A stretch of DNA of 64,000 nucleotides from a virus: IMG/VR virus record IMGVR_UViG_3300037231_000129, positions 1-64,000 of that record, one strand, 5' to 3'. Below the pieces are notes generated by a model. That model was not told the origin of the DNA. It did no database searches and saw only the letters and a program-made list of their open reading frames with translations. Each line of letters opens with the position of its first letter. The stretch's first letter is position 1. Positions 48,832 through 64,000 of this stretch are shown piece by piece. The translations under genes were made by a program, and so were the position numbers.

Positions 48832-48839
48832 ACACCCCA

Positions 48840-49226
48840 ATGAGTTTTGCTTCATCCTTCGGCCAGCCGCTCGCGCGTACTGGCCTTAATTTGCTTCGTG
48901 GGTCCACGATCCAGGCCATCGCCCGCACTGTGGGCGTTGTCGCTGCCGCGGGTCTCCTCGGAGCAGTCTACCACGTCGTCAACGACGAGGCCCGCAACGT
49001 CGTCCAGCTCGCCCGCTTGCGAGGCCAGTACCGCCGGCACCGCCACGATCGAATACTCGTAGCGACGCTCGGCACGGCTCTGGATCCGCAGCTGCAATAC
49101 CAGCTGCTCTCGTCGCGGGATGCATTCAAACGCATCACACGCCTGCTGGTCGATCCGGCCGTCGACGACGTCTCACGTAACCAGCTGCGCCAAGCCATTG
49201 TCATGGCCTGCTCGCAGCCGGTTTAG
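48840..49226 (+). CDS. hypothetical protein with TM segment (array gene)
   Basis: Shared leader. Confidence 0.75.
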   Translation: MSFASSFGQPLARTGLNLLRGSTIQAIARTVGVVAAAGLLGAVYHVVNDEARNVVQLARLRGQYRRHRHDRILVATLGTALDPQLQYQLLSSRDAFKRITRLLVDPAVDDVSRNQLRQAIVMACSQPV

Positions 49227-49353
49227 AACGGGTATCATACCCTTTCTCGTTCCCGCTTTGGTCCACCAAAGCGGGCGGGATACCCTCTCGACTGAGAGGG
49301 GAGTCCAGCCGGCCGCTCTGAAAGCGCCGACGAAATCCCGAAAGGCACACCCA

Positions 49354-49770
49354 ATGGCCAAATCCAAGCTGTCCGAACGCATGCTTCCTGTGCGAGGTTC
49401 CAAGCAATCACATGAATTGCTGATAGAGCTGGTCGCCGAACTTAAAATGGCGGCCGAAGAAGGCACTGTCTTGCATTATGCGCCTGTTTTGGACGCTTAC
49501 GTGTCAAAGCGTAAAGCCAAACAGATAAACAAATGCTTTGAGGAAATGCTCGACGAAGTTTTGCTTCGAAAATTGACGACCCTCGAATTTTTGTTTGTTG
49601 CGGCTAGACTCTGGCATTTCGCCAAGCTAGAAACAAATATGACGATGCCGATCCAAGCACGTCCATACTTACCCAAGCTGTTCGATCTCGCCGAAGAATT
49701 CGGCGTCGCGGCAGCGGATATCGCACAAATCGAAATCGACCATGTCGTGAACCCGCCGCCCGATGATTGA
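49354..49770 (+). CDS. hypothetical protein (array gene)
   Basis: CGAAAGGCACACCCA-ATG. Confidence 0.75.
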   Translation: MAKSKLSERMLPVRGSKQSHELLIELVAELKMAAEEGTVLHYAPVLDAYVSKRKAKQINKCFEEMLDEVLLRKLTTLEFLFVAARLWHFAKLETNMTMPIQARPYLPKLFDLAEEFGVAAADIAQIEIDHVVNPPPDD

Positions 49771-49778
49771 TCGGGCGG

Positions 49779-49833
49779 GCCTTCCCCGCACCGCGGGGCA
49801 GAGAGCCGAGACCTGCACGTCCCGGCGAAAGGC
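49779..49833 (+). ncRNA. hammerhead-like element A6
   Basis: GCCT T CCCCGC/GCGGGG CAGAGA GCCGAGAC/GTCCCGGC GAA AGGC. Confidence 0.55.
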
Positions 49834-49840
49834 ACACAAA

Positions 49841-49966
49841 ATGCCGTTCCTCCTCGCCCTGGCATTCATTTACCTGCCGGGTTGGGTCTGGCCCGCGCTC
49901 ATCATTTTCGCGTTGATCGCGCTGCTAGTGCCCGGCCTTGCACCCCCCAGAACCGGCGGTAAGTAA
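49841..49966 (+). CDS. 41-aa hydrophobic peptide
   Basis: Shared leader; MPFLLALAFIYLPGWVWPALIIFALIALLVPG. Confidence 0.6.
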   Translation: MPFLLALAFIYLPGWVWPALIIFALIALLVPGLAPPRTGGK

Positions 49967-50002
49967 CCGCCGGCGCCGGCATTCAACCGGCTTGAGAAAG
50001 GG
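49946..50002 (+). ncRNA. hammerhead-like element, type II topology, UUGANAA core (B1)
   Basis: CCC A GAA CCGGCGGT/ACCGCCGG C GCCGG/CCGGC TTGAGAA A GGG. Confidence 0.6.
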
Positions 50003-50008
50003 ACAACC

Positions 50009-50284
50009 ATGACCATAGACCCCAACCTCCTCCGACCTGGTCATCGTCTGCGGTTCACCCAATCGCTGGACGTCTTCACCCTGGACCACATCTTTCCCAA
50101 AGGTGCGGCGGGCACGATCGAAGACGCCGAACTCGACGCCCTCCCGGGTCTGCCAATCCTGTATCTGCGCATGGATGACGTCTTTCCCTGCTTGAGCAGC
50201 TTCAAGAATGTTCTGCAGATCTTCCGGTCTAATGACCTGGGTGCGGAGGTGACCGACGCTGAATTCGAACCATGCGGCTTCTAA
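50009..50284 (+). CDS. hypothetical protein (array gene)
   Basis: AAAGGGA RBS. Confidence 0.7.
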   Translation: MTIDPNLLRPGHRLRFTQSLDVFTLDHIFPKGAAGTIEDAELDALPGLPILYLRMDDVFPCLSSFKNVLQIFRSNDLGAEVTDAEFEPCGF

Positions 50285-50321
50285 GCCGCCTGGTGCCAGG
50301 ACACCCCTGGCTTGATAAGGA
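50264..50321 (+). ncRNA. hammerhead-like element B2
   Basis: TTC GAA CCA.GCGGC/GCCGC.TGG T GCCAGG/CCTGGC TTGATAA GGA. Confidence 0.6.
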
Positions 50322-50328
50322 CATCCAC

Positions 50329-50934
50329 ATGTTACTCACCGACGACCAGGCCACACGCATCAACGGCCTTCTCCGTGCCACGCGGCCGTTCGCCAAATTG
50401 CCGGCGACGAACCAGCGACCCATGAACACCACGTGGCAAGCACTGAACGACACGTTGATGTCGATGCGGCTCCCCCTCTATCACAGATCCCTGCGCAAGC
50501 CGGTTCCCACGGAGAAGGTCTACGAGGCCGCCGTGCAGAATGGGCTTGCACTCCTCGGCGCGTTCGCGGCGACGCTTGGCACCAAACAGGCCATCGTCAG
50601 CAGCCGCGGCCGCTGGATCGACCGCATCAGCTTTCAGCCCCGTCCCGACGGGATGAACTGGAATGCGGCGCATGCCATCTCCCCGGAGTATCTGGTCCAA
50701 AAACGGGCCAGTGATCCGAACCAAGCTGTCTCGTTGGAGGATTTCCTGTTCATGGCCGCCAAGACTACCTACGTGGTAGCCCGGCGGTCCGCAGGCGCGA
50801 TCCCCGACATTACCGCTACCTTCGCCTTCGACGTCGCCTCCGATGGTGCGCCGACGGTCGATGGGGTGGTGCGAGAACACGGCGCCCAGACGCATAACGC
50901 GAGCTTGCTGCCGCTTTCTCCTTTCCGCCTTTGA
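50329..50934 (+). CDS. hypothetical protein (array gene)
   Basis: TAAGGA RBS. Confidence 0.7.
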   Translation: MLLTDDQATRINGLLRATRPFAKLPATNQRPMNTTWQALNDTLMSMRLPLYHRSLRKPVPTEKVYEAAVQNGLALLGAFAATLGTKQAIVSSRGRWIDRISFQPRPDGMNWNAAHAISPEYLVQKRASDPNQAVSLEDFLFMAAKTTYVVARRSAGAIPDITATFAFDVASDGAPTVDGVVREHGAQTHNASLLPLSPFRL

Positions 50935-51018
50935 GAAAGGCGCGCCCTTCGGGGCCGCTTATCCATGCACATCATCATGGACTGAAGACTTGATTTCCCG
51001 CCTGATCATTACCATATC

Positions 51019-51802
51019 AGTTGGGTCATTAAAATCCGAATGATCTGGGCCCGGTTAGCGCCCTAGAGTGCGGCGCTTCTGCGCGGCTTGAGACGATCCT
51101 GGTGCGACGGTCGCACTTGCAATTTAGCAGGCGAGATGTTGAGGAAGACATCAATAGAGATTCCGCATCGTTGTGGTACTTGCAAGAACGCGGAAAAGGC
51201 CAATGCTCGACTGTAAGGCCAGTTGGGATTTGAGTACGGCAGCACTTGTAACCCTGCCCGAACACGGGGGCGCCACCCTCCAAGCCTAAACCTCTTCTAT
51301 TTCGTCCAATGAGTATCGACCAAAATGGCTCCGCTATAGTCCATCGGCATGCCGGTCATCCGGATTGATGCCAGTTAGAATGCGGTTCCGAGTGCCTGGG
51401 GTCTATGGCCCCCAGGCCGCCATGAGTAGTCGAGCCATCCGTAGTGGTAGAAGTTGGTTTGACTATGGAAATCAAACTGATGGAATTCACCGCGGAGATC
51501 CTATCCGGCAAGCCATTGGCGACCGCAAGGGCGCCGAGAATGCCGAGAGTTCATGCAGGCCCATGAGCAGGATAGGATCTGGTTTCCGTCGCATAACGCG
51601 GCGGGCTGAGAACTCGCCCGGGGCCTGGTCGCAATCCAGTAGCCAGAGCCCCCGGGCGGCAGAAACCAGATATCATTCCCATAGCATAGCGGTCCGAGTA
51701 GCTTAGTGCGCTCGACTGCTAAGGCCGGCAGCTTCTGCTGTGTTTCGAAAGGAACCCGCGTTGGGTGTGCGCGGCGGCCGGCATCTCACCCACCACCCAA
51801 CT
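51019..51802 (+). ncRNA. candidate large structured non-coding RNA (about 780 nt)
   Basis: No credible ORF; many nested helices; 5'/3' closing helix AGTTGGGT/ACCCAACT; followed by a terminator. Confidence 0.6.
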
Positions 51803-51804
51803 TC

Positions 51805-51839
51805 CCCCCTGACAGGACCCCCTGTCAGGGGGTTTTTTT
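51805..51839 (+). terminator. strong intrinsic terminator
   Basis: CCCCCTGACAGG-ACCC-CCTGTCAGGGGG followed by T7. Confidence 0.85.
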
Positions 51840-52262
51840 GTGCCTTTGACGCCAGCTCGCCAGTCCGTGCAACGCGGCGCGGAGTAATGGCTGCTGGGTG
51901 GCCGTGGGCGGGTTTTCCCACACCACGCAATTTACCAGCACATTCCAGGAATCCGGGCCGATCGCGTCGTAGGCATGCGCCAGCTGGTGCAACGCGGCTG
52001 CCTGCTCAGACGCGCGCGTTGCGTCTGCTTCAGTGAACGAGGAGCGGCTCAACCGCCCGCGGAGGTTGCCTGTCGTCGCCATTTCGCCAAACCAGGCGGC
52101 CGCGCCCAGCAGTTTGGCGACCTCGTCGCCCAGCTCGCCGGCGTGCGCCATCACCTCGAGCGGTGTGAGCATGCGGCCCGGAATGACGGTTTTCACGACC
52201 ATCCGGCCATCTTTGATCGTGACGTCGGCGAATGCCGCCTTGACACGATGTTGATACGCCAT
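51825..52262 (-). CDS. DUF6456-like putative transcriptional (late/antitermination) regulator
   Basis: GAGGGG RBS; C-terminal A..AIG....VL..CV.......LLRAAL..LA pattern. Confidence 0.45.
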   Translation of the reverse strand: MAYQHRVKAAFADVTIKDGRMVVKTVIPGRMLTPLEVMAHAGELGDEVAKLLGAAAWFGEMATTGNLRGRLSRSSFTEADATRASEQAAALHQLAHAYDAIGPDSWNVLVNCVVWENPPTATQQPLLRAALHGLASWRQRHKKTP

Positions 52263-52328
52263 GGAAAACCCCTCTATCGTGGACCATGATCTTGCCTACG
52301 ACTCTAGGAAAGCGGTTAACATCCGGCC

Positions 52329-52865
52329 ATGAAAGCCCCGACCAGCCTCCCCGTTCTGCCATTAAAAGCCGATATCACGAGCGAGGTGGGTCAGATCGCG
52401 ATCGCGATCCCACTGGCCACGACGTATCTGCTTTCACTGATCGATCCGGCCGACAAGAAAGGTAAACGGCATCTGTATAATCAGCGGCACTTGCGAAATT
52501 TGACCGGCGGTGGCGACAAGAATGGCAAAGGCGGCAACGAAGAAGACCGGCTGCACAAGAATTCGATCCTGAAAATCTGGGACCTGCGCAAGATATGGGC
52601 GGTCCCTCAGCCAATAAATCCCACTTTGGGGAGAGCCTATCGAAAAGCATGCTCAGTGGCTGGTGGTACGCCCACCATGAAGAAACCGAAAATGCACTGG
52701 ATCGAGGCGAAAGAGGGTGCATCCGGCTTCATGGGCGAAAGCGGGCGCTACCAATGGCTGTGGAACCCTGAGGTTTCCACCTTCGAGAAGCTGGAGCTGA
52801 TCCTCGCTGAAGCCCGCCGGCGGGGGTTTGACGCCGAGGTGGTCAAGATGCGGCAAGCGGCGTGA
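52329..52865 (+). CDS. hypothetical protein
   Basis: 178-aa ORF. Confidence 0.6.
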   Translation: MKAPTSLPVLPLKADITSEVGQIAIAIPLATTYLLSLIDPADKKGKRHLYNQRHLRNLTGGGDKNGKGGNEEDRLHKNSILKIWDLRKIWAVPQPINPTLGRAYRKACSVAGGTPTMKKPKMHWIEAKEGASGFMGESGRYQWLWNPEVSTFEKLELILAEARRRGFDAEVVKMRQAA

Positions 52866-52877
52866 GGGATCCCCCGC

Positions 52878-53501
52878 GTGAGCCCCGAAAACGCCCCATC
52901 CTCGCTCACCATCCCTGTTGCGTCTGCGCCTCTCGATTTGCTCCCTACGGCGTCGGAAAAAGCTTTCCTTGGATCTTCAGTCAGGACTGGGAAACCTACT
53001 TCAAATCCATGCTCTGGTACTGTCCGAAGCACAATCCAGACACCGCGGCGTCGCAACCATTACGAACGCCGGCTGCAAATCTACCTCGTGCGTCAGTTCC
53101 GCCGCCTGGTCGATCCACTGGACGCGAGCCTGATCGCGATCGAGAACGGCGAAGACCGTAGCCCGGAGACGCTCGAGCTGCTCGATGCCATGGGGTTGGA
53201 GGCCGGTATCACCGACCTGGTGCTGCTCGCCACAGGCGCACGGGCGCACTGGATCGAGATCAAGCTGGCCAAGACGGATCTGCATGCAGCGACCGACGTG
53301 CGGCCCAACCAGCAGGTGATCCACAACCTGCTCCGCTATTATCGCTTCCAGGTCAGCGTGGTGCGGACGGCGGACGAATTCTGGGCAATCGTGGATGCGA
53401 TGCAGATCCACCATTTGCCGCGGCCGCCGGTGCATGAGCAGCTGCACCTGCCGGTGATGCGCCGGCGGCGGCTGAAGCGCCCGACGGCCGAGGCGGCCTA
53501 G
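52878..53501 (+). CDS. VRR-NUC (PD-(D/E)xK) nuclease
   Basis: E..LQ, MGL.AGITDL, WIEIK, Q...H..L...V.VVR. Confidence 0.75.
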   Translation: MSPENAPSSLTIPVASAPLDLLPTASEKAFLGSSVRTGKPTSNPCSGTVRSTIQTPRRRNHYERRLQIYLVRQFRRLVDPLDASLIAIENGEDRSPETLELLDAMGLEAGITDLVLLATGARAHWIEIKLAKTDLHAATDVRPNQQVIHNLLRYYRFQVSVVRTADEFWAIVDAMQIHHLPRPPVHEQLHLPVMRRRRLKRPTAEAA

Positions 53502-53532
53502 CCGATCGGCTTAGCCGGCGGCCGCGATTCCA

Positions 53533-53763
53533 TCAGTTGTCCCGTTTTTCCATGCGAGAGAGTCGGCCGGGACGGTTTCCCCTGAGCCTGCGGCCTGCAT
53601 CCGTCAGCCAAAGCAACCGGTTCTCCGTCCTGGTGACGAGGCCGGCTGACGTCGCGGCGGCGACGATCGCCCGGTCATCCGGCAGGCTACGCGATTCCCA
53701 CCATTCGGCGAACAGCGTGCTGTCAGCGATGACGGCCTGGGGCGTCGGATCTTGCGTCATCAT
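53533..53763 (-). CDS. hypothetical protein
   Basis: ATGA coupling. Confidence 0.5.
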   Translation of the reverse strand: MMTQDPTPQAVIADSTLFAEWWESRSLPDDRAIVAAATSAGLVTRTENRLLWLTDAGRRLRGNRPGRLSRMEKRDN

Positions 53764-53996
53764 GGCAAATCCGTATTCGAGGCGCTGGACAGCGAGCACC
53801 ATCCGTCCCACTCGGTCATCGTCGACGTCGTCCAGAGCATGCAGCCATCCGCCAGACACCGTGTCGCGACGATGACGTTCGCCGTCTGTTGGCTGCTCAT
53901 CGTCGGTCCTGGCCGGTTGATGGCTGGCCCCTCATCCTGCATCGACAGGGTGCGCGACCATGGGCACCATTTCTTCTTTGCTTCGTCGGGGCTCAT
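53760..53996 (-). CDS. Cys-rich small phage protein
   Basis: EAKKKWCP...C.A.GCMLW...GWC.L. Confidence 0.7.
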   Translation of the reverse strand: MSPDEAKKKWCPWSRTLSMQDEGPAINRPGPTMSSQQTANVIVATRCLADGCMLWTTSTMTEWDGWCSLSSASNTDLP

Positions 53997-54544
53997 TCTT
54001 CGGTTTCCTCTGGTTCTGGAGCGTCGGCGGCGAGCACCTCTTCAGGGTGCTTTTGCGCCATGTGGGCACTGAGATCAGCGAAGCTGGTATCGCAGTGCAG
54101 GCAGATGCCGTGAGCCGCCTGCTTCTCCGCTCGCCGCAGCGCCTTGTTGGCGTCGCGGGCCTTGCGACGCGCCCGATCGCGCGCCTCGATCGCCACGCTG
54201 AAGGCTTCTACCGCGCGGAATTGGCGGCCCTGCGCCTCGGTCGCAATTCGCTGGAGGCGCTCGATCTCTTCCGCCTGGCGGGCGGTCTCCTGCTTCAGCC
54301 GATCACGCTCGCGGCGCGTCATCTCGTCCTGGCAGTTGTCTTTGTCCCAGCCCCAGCCGTGCCCATTCGGACAGTAATTGTAGCCGCCCTTGTTGTGCCG
54401 GTGGTCATAAACCTTGATCGGAACGACATAGAGAACGCCACAGCTGCCGCATTCGGTGATCCGGTAGGACTGGTCGCGGATCTCGATCAGGTCGCAGCTA
54501 AGAGATCGTGTCGGCGGGATCACCGCCAGATTTTGCCGTCCCAT
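53993..54544 (-). CDS. zinc-finger/coiled-coil phage protein
   Basis: CGSCG, YCPNGH, G.C..C..SF..L..HM..KHP; GGAGG RBS. Confidence 0.75.
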   Translation of the reverse strand: MGRQNLAVIPPTRSLSCDLIEIRDQSYRITECGSCGVLYVVPIKVYDHRHNKGGYNYCPNGHGWGWDKDNCQDEMTRRERDRLKQETARQAEEIERLQRIATEAQGRQFRAVEAFSVAIEARDRARRKARDANKALRRAEKQAAHGICLHCDTSFADLSAHMAQKHPEEVLAADAPEPEETEE

Positions 54545-55310
54545 ATTGCACCTCCCTGGTGATCGGGAATGTCTGCCACCGCTGGAGCGTCACATGCTCG
54601 GGCGGCGCGGTGCGGCCGCGCCCAGCCGGCGGCAGGGGCCACCCTTCATCGGTGCAGCCGATACAGTACCACCGCGTCTTGCGCCGCTTGCGCGCGGTGC
54701 GGAACCACGCAAGCCAGTCGTCGAAATCGCTGACCTCCGCATCAGTCAGCGGGCCGGTAGCGACAACGATATCGGTGCAGTGGGTGTTTTTCGAGGCCAC
54801 CCCAGCGAGAGTGGCCGCGTTTACCACCAAGTTCCACATATTGGGGCCACTGGCCCGCCAAACCTGCACGTGGCCACGATCTGGCATCATCACCGGATAG
54901 AGGCTGACGATCATCAGGCCGCCGTAGCCCAGCCGATAACTCCACCGAATCATACGCTTGACCGCCAAATTACTGACGTCAGCGGTCGACGGGTCGGCGT
55001 TGTAGGTAACCCAGCAAAGCTTCGGACCTGACCCCCAGGTATGGATCAACAGCTCGCGCCAGCGGGTCATATCGCTATCGTCCCAGCGTGGCTCCTCGTT
55101 GTCGTCACGCCACCGTCTCATGCCACCACCATGAAATACCACGTGGCGCATCACTGGCTTGACCGGCCTATCGCGAGAACGAACCACGGGCGGCAACGTC
55201 ACGCCGCTGCGTTTCAGCATTTCCTCGATGTCAACGATCGCGTCCATGCCGCCTCCTGCCACGGATGTGTCCATGATCATAGACCAAAAATCCGGATGGT
55301 CCAGCCTCAA
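54498..55310 (-). CDS. DUF1643-like protein
   Basis: WGSGP..CWV..PSTAD, WSYRLGYGGL.IVSLY. Confidence 0.65.
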   Translation of the reverse strand: MRLDHPDFWSMIMDTSVAGGGMDAIVDIEEMLKRSGVTLPPVVRSRDRPVKPVMRHVVFHGGGMRRWRDDNEEPRWDDSDMTRWRELLIHTWGSGPKLCWVTYNADPSTADVSNLAVKRMIRWSYRLGYGGLMIVSLYPVMMPDRGHVQVWRASGPNMWNLVVNAATLAGVASKNTHCTDIVVATGPLTDAEVSDFDDWLAWFRTARKRRKTRWYCIGCTDEGWPLPPAGRGRTAPPEHVTLQRWQTFPITREVQYGTAKSGGDPADTIS

Positions 55311-57238
55311 TCATCGTAGCGATCCTGCCATGACTGCCCCACCGGCTCGCGGAGAGCGTCAACCGACACCAGCTGCGGCGTGATCCGGGTATTGCTGAGG
55401 TTGTAGCGCATCATCGTGTCGCCCACGGTCACGTAGTAAGACTCCTTTGACTTCCAGCTTCGCACCAGCATGTCGGAGTTTTCAAAGTTCGGGCGATGAA
55501 TTGTCAGGCCGAAATCGCAGCGCGAATAGAAATTCTGTCCCCCACCGATGTCGTAACCGACGGGCACCGGATAACTGCCATCCTTGTTTTTCTCGCGCAT
55601 GGTATGCGGGTGCACGATCAATACGATATTAGTGCGAAGCTCTACCGCGAGCCCGACGCAGCCTTGCAAGACAACGCCCAGCCAATCGGTTTGCGTCTTG
55701 CGCCAGCCCTGTGGCATTTCGTCGTCGATTTCCTGCCACGGATCCCAGATTACCAGCTTGGCCCCGGTGCGCTTCACCGCTGAGCGTGTTGTTTCTTTCA
55801 ACCAGGTGAGCGGGGCCGGTTTGCCGCGTTCCGGCCATGCGATGAAGCTCCAATATTTGTGGACCCATTCCTGATTGGTCATCAACGCGGTGGCGCGATC
55901 CATACGCTCGAGATGGGCATTGCTGAAAAATGGCTGTTGGGTGCGTTGGGAAATCAAATCGACGCTGACGCGTTTGTTGCTGACCTCGGCCGAGAACATG
56001 ATCGTGTGAAACGGCCGGGCGAATTGATTGACCTGCATCTGATCAATCGCATGTTCGGTCACCATGGTGCTGTAGGCTGTCCAGAATGCCGATTTGCCAT
56101 GGCCTGGAATCCCCGTAGTGACCCAAAAACGTCCGTCGTCCGCCAGACTTATCCGTTGATCCAACGCCGCAACCCCGGTGATGAACCGCCCGCGTCCGAT
56201 CCCGTCGTAGAGATTGCCGACTTCCTCGTCGGTGACGACTTCGATGCCCTCAAGCGGGTAAGGCTCGGCATGGTCGATCGCGAACCGCACGGCGTCACGG
56301 CCACGCTTGGACAAGGTATCCTTGGCGTCCTTGCAGCCTTCGGGCCAGCGGACCAGCCAACAGCGCTCCTTGCCCAGCCGGCGGGCGATCTCCTCGTGAT
56401 GATTGGATCCGGCCAAATCCATGTCACCAGCGAGAATGATCTGCTTGAGGCGCTTCAGCTTTTGGTTGCTATGGAGGCAAATATACCTCTGATCGTCATC
56501 CGTGACCGGATCGTAGACCTTCGACAGCTTCGCCGGGCTGCCGTCTGGCAAACTCGTGGTCTGGCGAAAGCCGGCCTCGACGCATGCCGCAACGTCGTCC
56601 TCGCCCTCCACGATGATACCGGTTTCATCGCTGACGAAGCTGTCGACATTGTAGAGCGATTGCTCGGCGTCCGGTTCCTGGCTGAACCGCTTCACCCCGC
56701 TGCTGTACACCGCCTTGTATTTGACGTTCAGCAACGCGCCATCTTCGCGGTAGGGATAGGCGATCACCGGGCGCATGCGGCCGGCGCCGTCGATCTGCTT
56801 GCCGGCCTTGTCGATCGCCGGCATGAAGCGCTGGCTCCGGTAGATGCCGAGCATCTGCACGGTAGCCTCGGAGATCCCGAACTTCGCGAACCAGGTCAGC
56901 AGCGATGCCGGGCGATCGATATCTTCCGGTGGTACCGGCCGCCGATAGACCTTCGGGGCCTGCTGGCGGCGCGGTGGTGATCCGGAGAGCCGGCGGCCGC
57001 CGGTGATGCCGCAGTTGTTCGCCCGGTGGCATACCCAGGTGAAGCCCTGCCCATCATCGTCGATCCGGACGTAGAAATTCTTCTCCCGCTGCTTGCCACC
57101 ACCGCATTCGGGGCAGAACAGCTTGGAGCGACCACCGCCGTGGTTCTTGCCGGGTCGCGGCGCTTCGTGAAGCTCGATCCGCTCATCGTCGAGTAGCTCC
57201 TGCAGCGTTTCGCACGGCTGCTCGCCCTTCCGCGCCAC
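55307..57238 (-). CDS. bifunctional DNA primase-helicase (T7 gp4/Twinkle-like)
   Basis: Zinc finger CPEC..CH..NC; TOPRIM VEGEDD, DMD, KDA; Walker A TGIPGHGKS; DPW; VHP; IHRP. Confidence 0.9.
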   Translation of the reverse strand: MARKGEQPCETLQELLDDERIELHEAPRPGKNHGGGRSKLFCPECGGGKQREKNFYVRIDDDGQGFTWVCHRANNCGITGGRRLSGSPPRRQQAPKVYRRPVPPEDIDRPASLLTWFAKFGISEATVQMLGIYRSQRFMPAIDKAGKQIDGAGRMRPVIAYPYREDGALLNVKYKAVYSSGVKRFSQEPDAEQSLYNVDSFVSDETGIIVEGEDDVAACVEAGFRQTTSLPDGSPAKLSKVYDPVTDDDQRYICLHSNQKLKRLKQIILAGDMDLAGSNHHEEIARRLGKERCWLVRWPEGCKDAKDTLSKRGRDAVRFAIDHAEPYPLEGIEVVTDEEVGNLYDGIGRGRFITGVAALDQRISLADDGRFWVTTGIPGHGKSAFWTAYSTMVTEHAIDQMQVNQFARPFHTIMFSAEVSNKRVSVDLISQRTQQPFFSNAHLERMDRATALMTNQEWVHKYWSFIAWPERGKPAPLTWLKETTRSAVKRTGAKLVIWDPWQEIDDEMPQGWRKTQTDWLGVVLQGCVGLAVELRTNIVLIVHPHTMREKNKDGSYPVPVGYDIGGGQNFYSRCDFGLTIHRPNFENSDMLVRSWKSKESYYVTVGDTMMRYNLSNTRITPQLVSVDALREPVGQSWQDRYDD

Positions 57239-57241
57239 CGG

Positions 57242-58561
57242 TTAGAACTCGGATCCCGCCCAGTCTGGAGGAGGATCCCCGGCATTGCCGCTATGCCCGT
57301 TATTTTGCCCGTACAGCGGGTCTGGCGTTTTCCCCACCTGCTGACCGGCGAAATCGTCGGACCGTGCTGAGGCGCCAAAAATCTCTGCCCGCAGAACCGG
57401 ATCACGCTCGACCGCCTGCCACATAAACGAGCCTGGTTTGCTGGGATCGTATCCCCAAGCCTCTTTGAGGGCGGCATTCTGATCACTGACGAACGTGATC
57501 TTCACCATCGAGAAATCGCTGCAATGAAGGGGATCAATGCCCGGCGGTATGTCAACCAGGATCGCTGGATTACGCGAAAGATCGACCAGGTTGGCGTAAT
57601 TGTCGCGGATCAGAGCGTAGAGATCGAGCTGGCGCAGCCGTTCCTCCGACACGTTGGCCAATGTTTTCAGCGGCAAGCTGGCCCACCACCGGCTGATGTT
57701 TTCGCTGGTGGCGATTTGGCGAATTGACGCTGGATAGCCGCCTCGACGATCGCCGCGGAAGAATGGGTCCTTCGCAGCCCAGCGACAGCAGCGTGCCCAA
57801 CGATCAAGCTTGTTCTCGATGCTGGTATGTTTCATCGCCTGCTGGAGCATGATGCACTCGCCGCGGGTCGGCGTTCCCACCATCGGGATCAGCGGCGATC
57901 CTGCGATTTCGCGATTCCAGACTTCGATGATCTCGGCCGGGCTCGGCATGCGGGGTGCTGGAGGTGGCGGCTCGACCCCCGGCAGCGACGGCTCGGCGAT
58001 CGGAGCGGTGGTCGCATCCACCGGCGCTGGGCGCGCCCCCTGCCCGTCCGATGGATCGACAGGCCCTTCATGCACGAAGGAGCTCTTCGGGGGGGCCGCC
58101 GGCGAAGCCGGTGGCGGCGCGGTGGCGCAGTCCGGATCGGCCTCGAAAATTGGTCGCGCGCTCTCTTTCTCTTTCTTGTTTATTTCCTTGATTGATTCGT
58201 AGGACTCTGTGACCGGTGCAAACGTCGTTCGAGTCCAGTCGGTCCTGTCGTCGGAGTCCGTTTTCACCGGCCGGGACGTAAACCCGACGATTTGGTAAGT
58301 GCTGGCAGTGCGGCGTCCCTGCCCACTGACCAGAATTCGTAGCAGACCCATTTCGACCAATTGATCGATGGTGCGCCGGACGCTGCGCTCGTTGGCATGG
58401 ACCATCTCGGCCAGCCGGTTGATCGTTGGATAACTGATGCCCTGGCAATTGGCGTGCTGACCAAAGGCTTGCAGGAGGTAACCTTGCAGCTGTGTTCGCA
58501 CCTGTTGTGCCCATGCCCATTGAGCGCCCGCTACGTTGACGTAAGTCGTGGTGCAGCTCAT
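57242..58561 (-). CDS. phage replication initiator-like protein with N-terminal winged HTH
   Basis: GISYPTINRLAEM...ERSVRRTIDQL; directly upstream of the helicase. Confidence 0.75.
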   Translation of the reverse strand: MSCTTTYVNVAGAQWAWAQQVRTQLQGYLLQAFGQHANCQGISYPTINRLAEMVHANERSVRRTIDQLVEMGLLRILVSGQGRRTASTYQIVGFTSRPVKTDSDDRTDWTRTTFAPVTESYESIKEINKKEKESARPIFEADPDCATAPPPASPAAPPKSSFVHEGPVDPSDGQGARPAPVDATTAPIAEPSLPGVEPPPPAPRMPSPAEIIEVWNREIAGSPLIPMVGTPTRGECIMLQQAMKHTSIENKLDRWARCCRWAAKDPFFRGDRRGGYPASIRQIATSENISRWWASLPLKTLANVSEERLRQLDLYALIRDNYANLVDLSRNPAILVDIPPGIDPLHCSDFSMVKITFVSDQNAALKEAWGYDPSKPGSFMWQAVERDPVLRAEIFGASARSDDFAGQQVGKTPDPLYGQNNGHSGNAGDPPPDWAGSEF

Positions 58562-58929
58562 GGGACGAGCTCCTCGCTTGAGGAGTCGGGTGGAAAACCG
58601 ATTATTTGGTAGATGATGATTTGCTCCGCGTCGCCGCGGCGCTCACCCGTATCGGCAATAAAGTTGCCGGCTATGAGACGTTCTGGAATTCTGGTGAGAG
58701 TTTTCTCGCTCACATTTGTGACGCTGCCTAGCATCTGGTTTTTATCCGGTGCGCTGATGCCATTTTCATCGGCCCAAGAAGCGAGGCTGAAAAGGATGAA
58801 TTTTTCCTTGTGATTGCCCGGTTGCTTGGGAATTACGTATGCTATCGCATCTGCGTTGATCGGACGTTCCTTAGCAGGGAGTGCCAAAATGGCTGTTTGG
58901 TCCACGTTCATGTTCCGCCCCTTCATCAC
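58558..58929 (-). CDS. winged-HTH protein related to the initiator N-terminus
   Basis: KFILFSLASWADENGISAP...SEKTL...YQIIGF. Confidence 0.6.
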   Translation of the reverse strand: MMKGRNMNVDQTAILALPAKERPINADAIAYVIPKQPGNHKEKFILFSLASWADENGISAPDKNQMLGSVTNVSEKTLTRIPERLIAGNFIADTGERRGDAEQIIIYQIIGFPPDSSSEELVP

Positions 58930-59207
58930 AATCGATTTGCGACGCGGCGTGAAACTGAAACGAGGGCTTGCAGCCCAGACATATAACCACTAATTTGCCA
59001 GACGAGGTCATGGCAGACCAGGTGCTTCAACGCGGACGAGGGCCCGCGAAGTGTCTGAGCGTCGAATCCGTCGCCACGGTTTCCCGCTTCGTCAGTCAAG
59101 TCAGGGGCGGTCGGGTTAGCTGGCCGACCGCCCCACCTCTTCATCAAACTCCAGACTGTAATCAGCGAGTCCCAATCACGCAATATCCATGATTCCAGCT
59201 GCGACAC
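58926..59207 (-). CDS. hypothetical protein
   Basis: Coupled ORF; weak support. Confidence 0.35.
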   Translation of the reverse strand: MSQLESWILRDWDSLITVWSLMKRWGGRPANPTAPDLTDEAGNRGDGFDAQTLRGPSSALKHLVCHDLVWQISGYMSGLQALVSVSRRVANRL

Positions 59208-59400
59208 ATTTGCTGTATTTTCAATACCTAAACGATTCCAGTCGCTTGATCGCCAGAGTCGGCATCACCATATCTATTGGGCAATAACCACACGCAAAAA
59301 TTTACCACCGGGACTCGGTTTTTTGTGCCGATCCATAGAACGGCCGGTCTGCATGCACGCATGCGAATCGTCTGTGTTCCCGTTTTGAACGTGGTTTTCA

Positions 59401-59484
59401 TATCCGAAACCGCTCCGTGGCCGTGCCTCCCTCCCATGACCACGGGACGATCCGCCGGCGATCAAGCCGGCACTGATGAGGATA
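59401..59484 (+). ncRNA. type II hammerhead-like element with canonical CUGAUGA/GAAA core (C1)
   Basis: TATCC GAAA [imperfect stem III, CCGTGG/CCACGG] TC C GCCGGC/GCCGGC A CTGATGA GGATA. Confidence 0.7.
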
Positions 59485-59488
59485 CCCC

Positions 59489-59722
59489 ATGACAACACGC
59501 ATCCCGCAGGTCGTTCTGGACGCTTACGTCGCGCGTTGGTCGCATCTCGGGATATTGGCCGGGAAGGTCAATGATCCTGCTGTCACCGGCCTGCGCGCCG
59601 CACGCACATTCGCCCAGACGGTTTGCTGTCTCGAATCACCTCCCACGGTCACCATCAACCAGGTTCGCGGGCTTGCCCGCGTGGCCAATGGCGAACCCTG
59701 GGAAGCGATCCCCGACGTTTGA
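59489..59722 (+). CDS. hypothetical protein (array gene)
   Basis: GAGGA RBS from the element. Confidence 0.7.
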   Translation: MTTRIPQVVLDAYVARWSHLGILAGKVNDPAVTGLRAARTFAQTVCCLESPPTVTINQVRGLARVANGEPWEAIPDV

Positions 59723-59775
59723 AACCCCGGCCCGCCGGGTTCCCGGCGCAATCTGGCGCCGGACTGATGAGGAAC
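59721..59775 (+). ncRNA. hammerhead-like element C2
   Basis: GAAA C CCCGG/CCGGG TT C CCGGCGC/GCGCCGG A CTGATGA GG; stem II weak. Confidence 0.55.
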
Positions 59776-59780
59776 ACCCC

Positions 59781-60026
59781 ATGCCACCAAGAAGACGCGT
59801 TGAATGGCTCGCGGCGAAAGCCGAGGGTCAATGCAACGACGTGCCCTACGACACCGAGCTGGTGAACAGCAACGGCGTCTCCATCCATTTTTGGCTGGGC
59901 GACCGTGAACCCACCGACGAACTGCTCGACGATCTCTCACGACGTGCCTGCAATCGGCGGGACATCGTGCGGATCCAATTCTCCGAGGGTCAGCCCACCG
60001 GCTTCTGGGCTCACTCCGATTTCTGA
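59781..60026 (+). CDS. hypothetical protein (array gene)
   Basis: GAGGAACACCCC-ATG. Confidence 0.7.
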   Translation: MPPRRRVEWLAAKAEGQCNDVPYDTELVNSNGVSIHFWLGDREPTDELLDDLSRRACNRRDIVRIQFSEGQPTGFWAHSDF

Positions 60027-60027
60027 C

Positions 60028-60082
60028 GAAACCCCGGCTCAGCCGGGTTTCCGGCGCAATCCTGCGTCGGGCTGATGAAAGG
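60028..60082 (+). ncRNA. hammerhead-like element C3
   Basis: GAAA C CCCGGC/GCCGGG TT TCCGGCGC/GCGTCGGG CTGATGA; stem II poor. Confidence 0.5.
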
Positions 60083-60088
60083 AATCAC

Positions 60089-60601
60089 ATGCCCCTTACC
60101 GTCCTTCGCGACGGTGCAGCACCGGTCATTCTTTCCAACCGGACTGTCTTTGATCAACTTCCCGACGAGATTGACGTAGCCGAGCTGATGAGCTCGATCC
60201 GCGCCGGCGACACCGTGCCCGTTACCTTACGGGAGATCGGTGCTGTCCGGCTGACGTCGCCAGGCATGGTGCCAACGCTGGATTACAATCCGCCCCAGCA
60301 ATCGTTGGCTCTGTCCACGGCGCATCCCATGCCCGTGGATCGGCCGTTCGAACTCGAATGCCGGATCCTGGTTCCAATCGATGCCATGATCAATTGCCAT
60401 GCCCCCTCCAAAAAGGAGGCTATGGAATTGGCCAACAAGGTTTTCGATGGTGTCAGGCAGGCGCCTTCGAGTTTCCAGGTGGTGGTGAACCGCGATGATA
60501 TAGCGGAAATCTTCCACGATCTGGAGAACGGCATGTCGCGCAGACGCTTCGACCTGATTGGCGCCCACAACCTGGTGGTCAATCGAACGGAAGAACGATG
60601 A
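60089..60601 (+). CDS. hypothetical protein (array gene)
   Basis: AAAGGA RBS. Confidence 0.7.
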   Translation: MPLTVLRDGAAPVILSNRTVFDQLPDEIDVAELMSSIRAGDTVPVTLREIGAVRLTSPGMVPTLDYNPPQQSLALSTAHPMPVDRPFELECRILVPIDAMINCHAPSKKEAMELANKVFDGVRQAPSSFQVVVNRDDIAEIFHDLENGMSRRRFDLIGAHNLVVNRTEER

Positions 60602-60614
60602 AAGAATCCAGCCC

Positions 60615-61190
60615 ATGGCAAATCTGACTGTTTACCGCCAGCAAGAGCCACCGTTTTCAATGACGATGGCCAACTGCCTGGCGGCCGCTGCCACCCAGGA
60701 AGACACCGATCTGATTGCCCTGTCCATGCGCACCAAGCGCCCTGCTCTGGTGGGCCTCGACAGCCGGTCGTCGATCATTCTACCCGGTGGAGACCTCGAC
60801 GGACGTACCACGTTCGAAGATCTCTACGACACCTGCCTGACATTGGTCGACCTGCAGCACATGCGGGAGGCCAATGTTAGCAACCCTGAGGATGTGCCAC
60901 TGCGAGCCTACAGGCTCGAAGTGTTGTTTGCGATCGATGGCACCTGCCAAATACCGATTGCTCTTCTCGCCAGTTCTATCGGCGATGCACGCCCCCGTTT
61001 GCGTACTCTCCTCGCCAAGGATGTTATGTTCCGCGAAGCCCTGTTTGACGCTGTCATTCAGGCTATCGACCGGAACTTTCGGGCTGAGGAGGATATCGTA
61101 TTCCGGGTGCGGGAGAGCAGCATGGACGATCGCTCCATCATCCCGCCCCTGCTCCCAGGGGCCGGGCCAGAGTGGCGCATTCTTGAGTAA
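60615..61190 (+). CDS. hypothetical protein
   Basis: ORF without a preceding element. Confidence 0.65.
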   Translation: MANLTVYRQQEPPFSMTMANCLAAAATQEDTDLIALSMRTKRPALVGLDSRSSIILPGGDLDGRTTFEDLYDTCLTLVDLQHMREANVSNPEDVPLRAYRLEVLFAIDGTCQIPIALLASSIGDARPRLRTLLAKDVMFREALFDAVIQAIDRNFRAEEDIVFRVRESSMDDRSIIPPLLPGAGPEWRILE

Positions 61191-61192
61191 GT

Positions 61193-61253
61193 GAAAACCC
61201 CGTAGCGGATACCGCCGCGGGGTTTTGCTTGCATTCAGCAAGCATTGATAAGG
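61193..61253 (+). ncRNA. hammerhead-like element B3 (A15.1-U16.1, UUGAUAA core)
   Basis: GAA AACCCCG/CGGGGTT T TGCTTGC/GCAAGCA TTGATAA GG; stem II weak. Confidence 0.55.
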
Positions 61254-61263
61254 AACACACCCA

Positions 61264-61506
61264 ATGTCTGACGAACCCAAGATCCTTGACGGGATCGCTA
61301 TGCCCCCGATCCACCCCTCGATCACCATGGACTTGGTTCTCGAAGCCATGGATCGCTCACCAAGCGAGACAGACGCCCTCGGCTTCTGCCTGGCGTGTGG
61401 CGAGAGCGTGCGAGAGATCGCTACGAGCACCAGGCGCGAGACATGCGGCTTCTGCGGTTGCCCTGCCGTCTTCGGCGCCGAGGAAATCATGTTCATTCTC
61501 GCCTGA
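61264..61506 (+). CDS. zinc-finger phage protein
   Basis: GFCLACG...CGFCG...VFGAEE. Confidence 0.75.
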   Translation: MSDEPKILDGIAMPPIHPSITMDLVLEAMDRSPSETDALGFCLACGESVREIATSTRRETCGFCGCPAVFGAEEIMFILA

Positions 61507-61557
61507 TCCGAACCTGGGCCACGCCCGGGCGCGGGCATTTCGCCCGCTTGAAAAGGA
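61507..61557 (+). ncRNA. hammerhead-like element B4
   Basis: TCC GAA CCTGGGC/GCCCGGG C GCGGGC/GCCCGC TTGAAAA GGA. Confidence 0.62.
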
Positions 61558-61564
61558 ACACCCC

Positions 61565-61810
61565 ATGTCGAAAACCGCTCAGGAGATCCTGGATGCCCTG
61601 CCCCTGCCGCCGATCCATTCGAGCGTCACGCCCGAGCGGCTCACCGAGGCGCTCACCCGCTATCAGCAGACCTTGGATAACCCAGGGTTTTGTTTGAGTT
61701 GCGGCGCCGAGGCCGAGGGCTGCGAACCCGATGCCCGTCGCTACCACTGCGACGAGTGCGGACAGCCCGCCGTCTTCGGCGCCGAGGAACTCGTGCTGAT
61801 GACGATGTAG
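61565..61810 (+). CDS. zinc-finger phage protein, paralog of the previous gene
   Basis: GFCLSCG..EPDARRYHCDECG..VFGAEE. Confidence 0.8.
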   Translation: MSKTAQEILDALPLPPIHSSVTPERLTEALTRYQQTLDNPGFCLSCGAEAEGCEPDARRYHCDECGQPAVFGAEELVLMTM

Positions 61811-61819
61811 GAGGCAGCC

Positions 61820-62041
61820 ATGGCAGCGCGTCTCTGGAATCCTCACATTGGCACCCTGAAAGGCGGCCTACATCATAGTGTGGCCTACATCATTCAGATG
61901 CGGGTGCCACGCGATGAAGGCTATGGCTCGCCCATGGTCGCCCTGTCCGATTACACCACTTCCCGCCGTACGGCGGATAGCTGGTTGGCGGATGCTCGGG
62001 TGAAGGCCGGCCGCTATCTCAGGGATACCCGAAACAAATAA
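61820..62041 (+). CDS. hypothetical protein
   Basis: AGGAGG RBS. Confidence 0.65.
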   Translation: MAARLWNPHIGTLKGGLHHSVAYIIQMRVPRDEGYGSPMVALSDYTTSRRTADSWLADARVKAGRYLRDTRNK

Positions 62042-62090
62042 CCGAACCCGGGCTACACCCGGGTGCGAGCATCCCGCTCGCTTGAAAAGG
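62042..62090 (+). ncRNA. hammerhead-like element B5
   Basis: CC GAA CCCGGG/CCCGGG T GCGAGC/GCTCGC TTGAAAA GG. Confidence 0.6.
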
Positions 62091-62099
62091 AAACACCCC

Positions 62100-62693
62100 A
62101 TGGCTTCCTATCGTGAACTCGCGGCCGCCATCGAGGCGCTCTGCCGCGCTATTCGTGCTCGAACGATATCGCCTGCCTCGGCGTTGCTCACGTCATGTGA
62201 AGCGCTTGCCGCGGCCGCTCGCCGTGGCATCGTTGCTCAATCGCCCTGGACGCCCTTCGAGCCAGCGACAGCGCCGCCGATCTCCGAACGGGCACTGCAG
62301 CTCACCGCTGAAAGACTGAACCTGCCCCTTGAGGACGTCCGTCGTGAGTTGACCGACGAAATCCAGGGACCGCAGATCTTCATCAACAGCCGCTACCAGG
62401 TCGCCATGCGGCTTTGGGAACCCGGCGTCATGTATCTGTCGATCAAGCGTCTGGACCAGCAACCCATCCGGTCCTGGCGCGACCTGCAGCGGATCAAGAC
62501 CGAACTGGTTGGCCCCGAAAACGAAGGGGTCGAACTGTTCCCCGCGGAATCGCGGCTCATCGATCGGGCCAACCAGTTCCACCTGTTCATTTTGACCGAT
62601 CCAGCGGCGCGGTTCCCGTTCGGTTACAAGCACACCCGCGACGTCGGCCCTCCCGTTGGCCTTGGCGAGGCGCAGGAACCATTCGAGGCATAA
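62100..62693 (+). CDS. conserved phage protein (DUF7694-like C-terminus)
   Basis: LSIKRLD..WRDLQRIK.ELVGPE.E.VELFPAESRL.D.ANQFHL; family name tentative. Confidence 0.7.
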   Translation: MASYRELAAAIEALCRAIRARTISPASALLTSCEALAAAARRGIVAQSPWTPFEPATAPPISERALQLTAERLNLPLEDVRRELTDEIQGPQIFINSRYQVAMRLWEPGVMYLSIKRLDQQPIRSWRDLQRIKTELVGPENEGVELFPAESRLIDRANQFHLFILTDPAARFPFGYKHTRDVGPPVGLGEAQEPFEA

Positions 62694-62694
62694 T

Positions 62695-62739
62695 CCGAAC
62701 CCCTTCGGGGGTGCGAGCAATCAAGCTCGCTTGAAAAGG
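62695..62739 (+). ncRNA. hammerhead-like element B6
   Basis: CC GAA CCCC-TTCG-GGGG T GCGAGC/GCTCGC TTGAAAA GG. Confidence 0.6.
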
Positions 62740-62747
62740 CTACACCC

Positions 62748-62950
62748 ATGTCGAGGCACCCTCAATTCAGAATGGGATTTAAGACCGGCAACAATGCTTT
62801 CGATTACGGTCTGGGCATCCTGGAATCCATCGCATTTTGACCGAGATCAACGCCAAAATCGCTGATGGCGATCGAATAGGTAAGATCATGGACAGCAACG
62901 GCAATTCCATCGGCCAGTGGTCACTGGAATTGCCGGACGATAAAGATTGA
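62748..62950 (+). pseudogene. frameshifted small phage gene (FKTGNNAF... / RILTEINAKIADG..GKIMDSNGNSIGQW)
   Basis: The first frame stops after 30 aa; the continuation is in another frame near 62830. Confidence 0.6.
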
Positions 62951-62951
62951 G

Positions 62952-63003
62952 CCGAACCCGCGGCGCAAGCCCGGGCGCGAGCGATCAAGCTCGCTTGATA
63001 AGG
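62952..63003 (+). ncRNA. hammerhead-like element B7
   Basis: CC GAA CCCG.GGC-GCAA-GCC CGGG C GCGAGC/GCTCGC TTGATAA GG. Confidence 0.62.
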
Positions 63004-63012
63004 AAACACCCA

Positions 63013-63447
63013 ATGGGATACACACATTTTTGGTTTGCACCCGAAGCAATCAGACCCCGCATCTGGTGGGTCGTGATGGCCGACGCGCTTAAGTTGGTGG
63101 AAGCATTCCCAGGCCCTGGTGGCCTCTGCATGGGCATCGAGAACCAAGCCCAGCGAGCCTTCGTCTCACGCGAGGAAATCCGCTTCAATGGCGGACCAGG
63201 CGCGCAGGCGGAGGATTTCAGGCTCACCCGGGAAGCCGGCAAACGGTATAGCTCCTGCAAGACCCAGCATCAGCCCTATGAACGGCTGGTCTGTGCTATA
63301 CTTGCCTCCACCGCTGATCGTACTCGGCTCATTCGCGTCACCAGCGATGGCAATCATCACGATTGGTTACCATATATAGAGTGGGCGTCCACGGTGTTGC
63401 GGCGTCCACTCCCGATGCCGATCCATACCAACGAAATCACAGGGTAA
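63013..63447 (+). CDS. conserved phage protein (MGYTH.W...IRFNG...CKT..PY...V.SDG)
   Basis: Shared leader; recognisable motif pattern. Confidence 0.75.
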   Translation: MGYTHFWFAPEAIRPRIWWVVMADALKLVEAFPGPGGLCMGIENQAQRAFVSREEIRFNGGPGAQAEDFRLTREAGKRYSSCKTQHQPYERLVCAILASTADRTRLIRVTSDGNHHDWLPYIEWASTVLRRPLPMPIHTNEITG

Positions 63448-63505
63448 CGAACCCCACCGCCCGGTGGGGACGCCGGCGATCAAGCCGGCACTGAGGAGTA
63501 ACCCT
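63441..63505 (+). ncRNA. hammerhead-like element C4 (CUGAGGA core, C15.1-G16.1)
   Basis: AGGGTAAC GAA CCCCACC/GGTGGGG A C GCCGGC/GCCGGC A CTGAGGA GTAACCCT. Confidence 0.68.
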
Positions 63506-64000
63506 ATGGCAGATCTCGACATTATCGAACTCATGCGGAGCCCGCTGACCCAAAGCGGGAAATCCTCGAACTTCCTGCGCCTGGTGCTGTCCGAAGCCGC
63601 AAGCTACGGCATGCCGGCGCAGGTGGTTGCTACACTCGACGACATAGCGGCGATGCTCGGCTACTACCGGCCCCTGCCAGAGGGGCAGGCCGTGCATCTG
63701 GCGGGTCCTCTTGTGCAATGGCGTACCGACCGGCAACAGCCGGTGCTGGAACGCATCACGGAAATCGAAGGCCTGGCGCTCAAACAGCGTGCCCTCGTTG
63801 CTTTCGGCGGCGCACCACCCGACCACCGGGTAGGCACCGCGGAGATCATCGTCGCGCTGTCCAACTGCCATAAGAGCTTCATGCCAAAGCCCTATTATGA
63901 GATTTGGGCATGGGCTTGTACCACCGTCATGGCGCATCTGACCGGCGAAAACCCCGAGAAGATCCGCAAGACGAATGAGTGGCCGCAAGTTTTCGACAAC
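63506..64000 (+). CDS. hypothetical protein, runs off the right edge (MADLDIIELMRSPL...)
   Basis: Hand-translated open frame; GAGGAG RBS. Confidence 0.7.
   Translation, partial: MADLDIIELMRSPLTQSGKSSNFLRLVLSEAASYGMPAQVVATLDDIAAMLGYYRPLPEGQAVHLAGPLVQWRTDRQQPVLERITEIEGLALKQRALVAFGGAPPDHRVGTAEIIVALSNCHKSFMPKPYYEIWAWACTTVMAHLTGENPEKIRKTNEWPQVFDN

Follow-up and report, generated by a model that had tools for sequence, protein, structure and literature searches.

Between the genes of an uncultivated soil/peat phage lie hammerhead-like RNA motifs, seven of which depart from the consensus in their catalytic core: the box reads UUGANAA in place of CUGANGA, and six of the seven have C15.1-G16.1 in place of A15.1-U16.1 as the first base pair of stem III. 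The locus raises the question of whether such copies are still self-cleaving ribozymes. We analyzed positions 1 to 64,000 of IMG/VR record IMGVR_UViG_3300037231_000129 (the window, 64,000 nucleotides), which are the first 64 kilobases (kb) of a virus record of 98,024 base pairs (bp) with 62% G+C, estimated by CheckV to be ~96% complete. The seven motifs stand before early genes. It is very probable that these elements are real and derived from hammerheads. We read the seven as diverged members of a set of 17 type II hammerheads that punctuate plus-strand arrays of early-type genes and would cleave themselves, and give this reading a probability of roughly 0.55. Judged from sequence, the odds that the variants still cut are somewhat better than even, because the catalytic letters and the H17 rule (no G at position 17) were kept in diverged copies.

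Read along the plus strand, each of the seven copies consisted of GAA, a stem III flush against it, one unpaired nucleotide (nt), a stem I likewise flush, the UUGANAA box and stem II. Seven type II copies with TTGAGAA, TTGATAA or TTGAAAA in the DNA had been named in the original prediction, and every one was found in its place, with TTGAGAA at 49992, TTGATAA at 50312, 61245 and 62995, and TTGAAAA at 61548, 62082 and 62731. Position 7 (in copy order G, U, U, A, A, A, U) was free, as predicted, and U4, G5, A6, A9 and GAA did not vary among the seven; the single unpaired nucleotide, position 17, was C, U, U, C, U, U and C. C15.1-G16.1 was also borne out in six copies, A-U being kept solely by the copy for which this had been predicted (that at 61193, pair 61196/61224). 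The copies are listed below under the position of the box; scores in bits refer to R2, a covariance model built from the phage's own copies (one of the 17 copies that it found lay outside its training set).

49946..50002, plus strand: copy 49992; GAA 49950-49952; C15.1 49953, G16.1 49973; stem III of 7 bp; predicted cleavage after C17 at 49974; stem I 49975-49991; UUGAGAA 49992-49998; stem II an A.A mismatch, then 3 bp; start codon 50009; minimum-free-energy (MFE) structure the full three-way junction, z-score -3.6; 45.5 bits.
50263..50322, plus strand: copy 50312; GAA 50267; C15.1 50270, G16.1 50293; stop codon of the upstream gene inside the stem III loop; U17 50294; stem I 50295-50311; UUGAUAA 50312-50318; stem II of 3 bp; start codon 50329; z-score -5.1; 46.5 bits.
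61189..61255, plus strand: copy 61245, the sole U3-A8 copy keeping A15.1-U16.1 (61196/61224); U17 61225; stem I 61226-61244; UUGAUAA 61245-61251; stem II essentially absent (one G.U); start codon 61264; z-score -5.6.
61506..61558, plus strand: copy 61548; GAA 61510; C15.1 61513, G16.1 61529; C17 61530; stem I 61531-61547; UUGAAAA 61548-61554; stem II of 3 bp; start codon 61565; MFE structure the full three-way junction; 53.3 bits.
62040..62092, plus strand: copy 62082; GAA 62044; C15.1 62047, G16.1 62063; U17 62064; stem I 62065-62081; UUGAAAA 62082-62088; stem II of 2 bp; start codon 62100 (DUF7694 gene).
62693..62741, plus strand: copy 62731; GAA 62697; C15.1 62700, G16.1 62711; stem III of 4 bp with a UUCG loop; U17 62712; stem I 62713-62730; UUGAAAA 62731-62737; stem II of 2 bp; start codon 62748.
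62950..63005, plus strand: copy 62995; GAA 62954; C15.1 62957, G16.1 62975; C17 62976; stem I 62977-62994 (loop GAUCAA); UUGAUAA 62995-63001; stem II of 2 bp; start codon 63013; 54.4 bits.

All seven have the type II topology, in which stems I and III are closed by loops and stem II is open. Both hairpins belonged to the MFE structure in RNAfold, joined in two copies (49992 and 61548) by a 3-bp stem II; z-scores of the seven spanned -1.8 to -5.6, and RNAalifold returned the same two helices with double changes in 7 of 12 pairs. Stem II was as short as predicted, with the range to be widened from 2-3 bp to 0-3 bp (one G.U in copy 61245; a mismatch, then 3 bp, in copy 49992). After the box the variants read GG, or AGGG in copy 49992. 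Across the array a Shine-Dalgarno sequence (GAGGA or AAGGA) is built from positions 8, 9 and 10.1-10.3, and in the variants the start codon follows 10-12 nt past the box. One A of loop I is invariant, and the loop often reads (G/A)AUCAA. Perfect 5-bp complements to it occurred 18-28 nt upstream of GAA in three copies, inconsistently across copies. A switch pairing loop I (AUCAA) with the UUGAU box was considered and rejected, the hairpin being weak against a much stronger competing stem I.

Across the 98-kb genome, R2 found 17 type II hammerhead-like motifs, all on the plus strand at 49.9-72.0 kb, and nothing comparable elsewhere. Ten had a CUGANGA box and seven UUGANAA. Nearly every copy occupied the gap from a gene's stop codon to the next gene's start codon, and where a gene followed, it began 7-18 nt after the box. 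In favor of our reading, the variants share this slot with CUGANGA siblings in the same gene arrays. The ten siblings, five of them beyond the window, were as follows.

50931..50992, plus strand: CUGAAGA, A15.1-U16.1, A17, no stem II; 26.5 bits; at the stop codon of a gene for 201 amino acids (aa), heading a non-coding stretch of ~850 nt.
59402..59483, plus strand: CUGAUGA, A15.1-U16.1, C17, long stem III; 46.6 bits (Rfam Hammerhead_II, 17.5 bits); the first hammerhead of the gene array at 59.4-72 kb, which it heads.
59717..59774, plus strand: CUGAUGA; the best Rfam match of the window (RF02276, 25.8 bits, E value 0.047).
60024..60082, plus strand: CUGAUGA; 38.8 bits; together with the preceding copy it brackets an 81-aa gene absent from a related soil strain.
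63445..63501, plus strand: box 63491, CUGAGGA (C3-G8), C15.1-G16.1, A17; 46.5 bits.
64703-64768, 65097-65161, 66918-66978, 67149-67211 and 71957-72005, plus strand: siblings with a CUGANGA box beyond the window, where the array continues; that at 67149-67211 (box 67201) has C15.1-G16.1.

Several of these consensus-box siblings carry a C.A mismatch at 1.1-2.1, or C.A or C.U at 15.2-16.2, beside the core; at both places the U3-A8 copies have cleaner helices than several of them.

The motifs are far from what chance would supply. Measured against 200 dinucleotide shuffles, a strict descriptor gave 10 matches on the plus strand of the genome and none on the minus strand, compared with a shuffled mean of 1.1 for both strands; its TTGANAA form gave 7 matches against 0.37 expected. 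The string TTGANAA[AG]G occurred nine times on the plus strand and never on the minus strand; seven of the nine are the variants, and an eighth overlaps the start of the hammerhead at 50931-50992. A word so nearly confined to the variants does not serve the phage as a general start signal; neither UUGA nor GAA falls within the Shine-Dalgarno sequence, and the word TTGANAAGG is not used before the phage's other genes.

The paired positions varied together while the core did not. Positions 3 and 8 were C-G in 10 of the 17 copies, U-A in seven and mismatched in none, so the predicted joint change of the two held throughout, compensated in each U-A copy. Positions 15.1-16.1 were A-U in nine copies and C-G in eight. 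Stem I was 93% paired across the 17 paralogues, with changes on both sides in all six of its pairs; none of 500 shuffles reached the observed covariation score, and slid controls fell from 80% to 34-48% paired. G12, A13, A14, U4, G5, A6 and A9 were 100% identical in 17/17 copies, the five diverged C-G copies included, compared with identities of 48-60% in stem columns (48% in the stems of those five), 25-40% at N7 and 46-60% at H17. Position 17 was never G in the 17 copies, at a genomic G frequency of 0.31 (P ~0.002). As judged from these alignments, purifying selection acts on the core. Architecture, strand bias, covariation and core conservation together leave chance, a plain ribosome-binding site with a terminator, and recent duplication as weak explanations. 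The original prediction took the 3-8 pattern as its best evidence for a true hammerhead fold; the architecture is indeed that of a hammerhead and not of chance hairpins, but the weight of the covariation is lowered by paralogy, since the U-A copies are paralogues and their change may go back to one or a few events, not seven.

Set beside the Rfam type II family (RF02276, Hammerhead_II), the variants had the topology, the invariant G12, A13, A14, U4, G5, A6 and A9, and H17, and they kept position 3 paired with position 8. They departed from it in the letters at that pair (U3/A8 in 7/7), in A15.1-U16.1 (C-G in 6/7) and in score. The gathering score is 37 bits, which no hammerhead of the window reached; two of the ten CUGANGA copies obtained sub-threshold matches (25.8 and 17.5 bits), and the Rfam hammerhead models listed none of the seven variants at the gathering threshold or at E≤10. 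With two departures in letters and one in score we therefore class the seven as variants and not as ordinary members of the family, and the expectation that standard descriptors would miss them was borne out. How new they are differs between the two changes. Natural covariation from C3-G8 to U3-A8 was reported 'in several hammerhead ribozyme examples' by Perreault et al. 2011 (PMC3088659), so the feature on which the original prediction laid most stress has been known in nature since 2011, while no report of a hammerhead with C15.1-G16.1 was found in our literature searches. Core deviations are rare elsewhere (3/583 in one survey, PMC10085705), which makes 8/17 in a single phage notable. To speak of a natural variant class is thus fair for the sequences, with the reservations that U3-A8 is not new, that C15.1-G16.1 is not tied to UUGANAA and that catalysis is something we infer.

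The looseness of that tie is seen in the distribution of the two changes. C15.1-G16.1 accompanied U3-A8 in six copies and C3-G8 in two (boxes 63491 and, outside the window, 67201), and is therefore not confined to the UUGANAA core; with A-U in one U3-A8 copy, all four combinations of states occur. The association (6/7 U3-A8 copies versus 2/10 C3-G8 copies; Fisher p 0.015, uncorrected for paralogy) is modest. The stem I sequences that accompany C15.1-G16.1 include at least five that are unrelated, and nearly the same stem I (loop GAUCAA) was joined to stems III of both the A-U and the C-G kind, so the C-G state is either old or has passed from copy to copy by recombination. Recombination of this kind does occur, as is shown by a contig of the related soil strain that joins 59720 to 60028 and skips 307 nt, so that it lacks the 81-aa gene (59781-60026); the breakpoints fall within 11 identical bases at the starts of two hammerheads, and the ribozyme repeats so double as recombination points for the loss or gain of gene cassettes. 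Contigs from four other metagenomes, which cover 47300-64000 patchily, showed no listed difference within a hammerhead, in numbers too small to mean anything.

Cleavage, its rate and its possible effects on mRNA stability and translation enter through the following model. The array would punctuate a polycistronic RNA with roughly one motif per gene. Each motif would fold during transcription, stem III first, then stem I, until the UUGANAA strand closes the short stem II, and by analogy with prophage arrays that have been tested it would then cut itself after position 17. The upstream message would end in the stem III hairpin with a cyclic phosphate, and the downstream message would begin with a 5'-OH and the stem I hairpin. 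With a stem II of only 0-3 bp, the two halves would therefore separate and free the ribosome-binding site (AAGGA, positions 8-10.3). U3-A8 would act as an isosteric replacement of the C3-G8 tertiary pair. C15.1-G16.1, in place of the usual first stem III pair, probably lowers the rate of cleavage without abolishing it, and copies may therefore differ in the speed at which they cut. Precedents support parts of this model: type II hammerheads clustered around single prophage genes form arrays whose cleavage was shown both in vitro and in E. coli, stems II of 2 bp are common, and weak cleavage persists in a natural U15.1-A16.1 variant (Perreault et al. 2011, PMC3088659). According to PMC3884650, the 'no G at 17' rule of minimal hammerheads, kept by all 17 copies, is relaxed in tertiary-stabilized ones.

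Several points weigh against cleavage, and the strongest counter-argument is the NHH rule. Position 16.1 may be A, C or U, and trans-acting hammerheads do not cleave with G16.1 (Kore 1998, as cited in PMC3923133 and PMC8495972), so that by classical rules C15.1-G16.1 should stop cutting; Perreault et al. (PMC3088659) cite losses of at least 10-fold for mutants at 15.1 and 16.1. When the double mutants of a type III hammerhead were scanned comprehensively, only a G3-C8 swap rescued the 3-8 pair, and the other doubles at that motif, which should include U3-A8, were of low activity (PMC9901934); tolerance of U3-A8 would therefore depend on context. Stem II is missing in copy 61245 and begins with a mismatch in copy 49992. 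We found no consistent pseudoknot of loop I or other tertiary clamp, and no complement to loop I in the 3' tail. Because all copies are paralogues from a single genome, counting them overstates the number of independent events, and no diverged relative carrying the variant was found.

The alternative that survives best draws on these same points. It holds that the motifs derive from hammerheads and barely or no longer cleave, the C15.1-G16.1 copies having been exapted as three-way-junction leaders that insulate cistrons, present or mask the ribosome-binding site, cap mRNA ends made by host RNases, or bind a phage or host factor that recognizes the junction. We regard this as possible, though clearly less likely than cleavage. 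G16.1 under the NHH rule, the failure of U3-A8 to be rescued in the scan, the very short stem II and the lack of a detected clamp are all as it predicts; in all copies positions 8 to 10.3 are shared with the ribosome-binding site, and a second family with a CAGAGA box (six copies, 47351-49833), even more deviant, suggests that core drift is tolerated in this genome. What it leaves unexplained is why G12, A13, A14, U4, G5, A6 and A9 should be invariant and position 17 free of G while stems, loops and N7 diverge, and why the change at 3-8 should be compensated in all seven copies.

Less likely still is that the conserved blocks serve at the DNA level as cassette boundaries, helping accessory genes to be gained, lost and shuffled through homologous recombination, in which case any activity of the RNA would be secondary. 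The joint at 59720-60028, which removes the 81-aa gene via 11 identical bases, would be such an event, and the four combinations of states and the near-identical stem I with different stems III fit recombination between copies. Recombination, however, needs identity, whereas the stems have diverged by compensatory changes that keep pairing; all copies lie on the transcribed strand of their genes, and a single joint is one event.

That the motifs are unrelated to hammerheads and are ordinary hairpins of intergenic terminators or attenuators, with an A-rich ribosome-binding stretch behind them that resembles the core by accident, was already disfavored and is very improbable. Translation could plausibly start at AAGGA plus ACACCCC before AUG, another viral contig (L280/L283) has the same 20-nt 3' end once and lacks the hairpins, and copy 61245, whose stem III and U run resemble an intrinsic terminator, aligns with terminator-type Rfam families, but a terminator scan of 58800-64000 (7 sites versus 4.0 expected) placed no plus-strand site on a variant copy, which rejects terminators for 6/7 copies with copy 61245 the exception in resemblance, and the flush GAA, the one-nt junction, the UUGA box, the paired 3-8, the strand bias and the consensus-box siblings in the same slot would all go unexplained.

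Relatives of the variants were sought widely. Scans of IMG/VR with the pattern CGAACC...GCTTGAWAAGGAA gave 27 matches, none with the two-hairpin fold, and with YTGANRAGGAACACCCCATG five stretches (three distinct sequences), none a hammerhead; among 185,579 GTDB species genomes, 72 matches to the 3' end pattern included none with hammerhead architecture. The matches from these pattern scans were structureless and attributable to chance. Searches anchored on proteins led to distant relatives alone. Loci of primase-helicase relatives (80 loci, ~30% identity) held a few consensus type II hammerheads (L020, L021) and no variants. Among 160 loci of DUF7694 relatives from IMG/VR and metagenomes, only L121 and L140, with a consensus core, and L198 had hammerheads. 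The last, at 391-440 of the soil contig Ga0310811_10145461, is a type II hammerhead with a CUGAUGA box, a 5-bp stem II and G15.1-C16.1; its loop I (GAUCCU) is similar to those of the phage copies, and it lies one gene upstream of a DUF7694 homologue (41% identity). It is a single hint that first stem III pairs other than A-U recur in such phage elements. The closest protein homologues were 91% and ~56% identical, and single-protein scans for the DNA of the closest homologues found nothing.

The gene content around the motifs divides by strand. Minus-strand genes encode a terminase, a portal protein, a Mu-F-like protein and a Toprim/DnaB-like primase-helicase; the plus strand consists of arrays of small genes, in which the DUF7694 protein was the only Pfam or PHROG assignment. 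Several hammerheads occurred per transcription unit, flanking single genes or short blocks, as in the arrays of Perreault et al. 2011. Identical DNA or near-identical strains were present in peat, soil and lake metagenomes, and no RNA run was found to contain this DNA; with 59400-63520 as query, blastn returned no match in a cultured phage. Two tandem paralogous genes of ~80 aa (61264-61506 and 61565-61810, plus strand) have cysteine pairs and a ...PAVFGAEE... C-terminus in common, and each has its own variant hammerhead upstream, in which 15.1-16.1 is A-U for the first gene and C-G for the second; if gene and leader were duplicated jointly, this pair was altered on both sides after the duplication.

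Directly 3' of the hammerhead at 50931-50992, positions 50990-51845 (plus strand) form ~850 nt without a convincing open reading frame, ending at a strong hairpin and U run (51797-51840), with an RNA fold z-score of -3.9. No Rfam family was found there, nor a blastn match in cultured phages or E. coli, and contig depth from other soil metagenomes peaked inside the stretch at 51199-51755. We regard it as a candidate for a large structured RNA of the phage, with a 5' end that a ribozyme could release. The CAGAGA family at 47351-49833 (plus strand) comprises six copies of a three-way junction of type III topology, in the order GCCU, one nucleotide, stem I, the 6-nt box CAGAGA, stem II and GAAAGGC, directly before ACACCCC(A)AUG. 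The box is one base short of the hammerhead consensus, with A in place of U4; one copy has the loop I UGAUCAAG, like type II copies. Neither a match in Rfam nor, with the pattern of this family, a match in IMG/VR was found.

Since hammerheads between phage genes and the U3-A8 change have both been published, the advance would be incremental in those respects, and what could go further is the first pair of stem III. It is doubtful, though conceivable, that the C15.1-G16.1 copies, alone or with U3-A8, are efficient hammerheads that cut after an N-G-H triplet. If they were, the last sequence restriction of the NHH rule would be broken, and the link between the two changes could reflect co-adaptation of the core or tuning of rates gene by gene along the operon. 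Should these copies cleave at all, the hammerhead consensus used in Rfam and descriptor searches, which requires A15.1-U16.1, would be too narrow, and engineered hammerheads could be aimed at targets with any nucleotide at 16.1 instead of NHH alone. If they do not, they would clearly exemplify ribozymes that have become structural mRNA leaders and keep their catalytic letters, which would itself need explanation. Either way, 17 siblings with four combinations of core states are a natural mutant series for asking whether cleavage rate tunes mRNA stoichiometry.

Among known systems, the natural U3-A8 variants of Perreault et al. 2011 (their Figure 5) share the same compensated change, and such covarying pairs had been shown to be active in vitro; those examples were not reported with an altered 15.1-16.1 pair, whereas 6/7 combine both changes here, and the filter in the Methods of that paper would have rejected variants with C15.1-G16.1. 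The natural U15.1-A16.1 variant of the same study likewise replaces the near-invariant A15.1-U16.1 with another Watson-Crick pair; it was tested and cleaved poorly, while we found the present G16.1-C15.1 combination in no paper. In the G3-C8 swap (PMC9901934, PMC8495972), too, positions 3 and 8 behave as a pair, though a different one from U3-A8, and as the sole rescuing double in the scan of PMC9901934 the swap counts against assuming that U3-A8 is always tolerated. Closest overall are the prophage type II arrays of Agrobacterium tumefaciens, Azorhizobium caulinodans and Clostridium scindens (PMC3088659, RF02276), which are alike in type II topology, in a short stem II, in having several copies per transcript and in lying between genes, at the borders of single genes or short blocks. 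In most type II members loop I forms a pseudoknot with the tail that follows stem II, of which no consistent counterpart was found here. The present phage has 17 copies in 98 kb, none at the Rfam gathering score, seven with U3-A8 and eight with C15.1-G16.1, and in its array, unlike the prophage arrays, the ribosome-binding site forms part of the core and of stem II.

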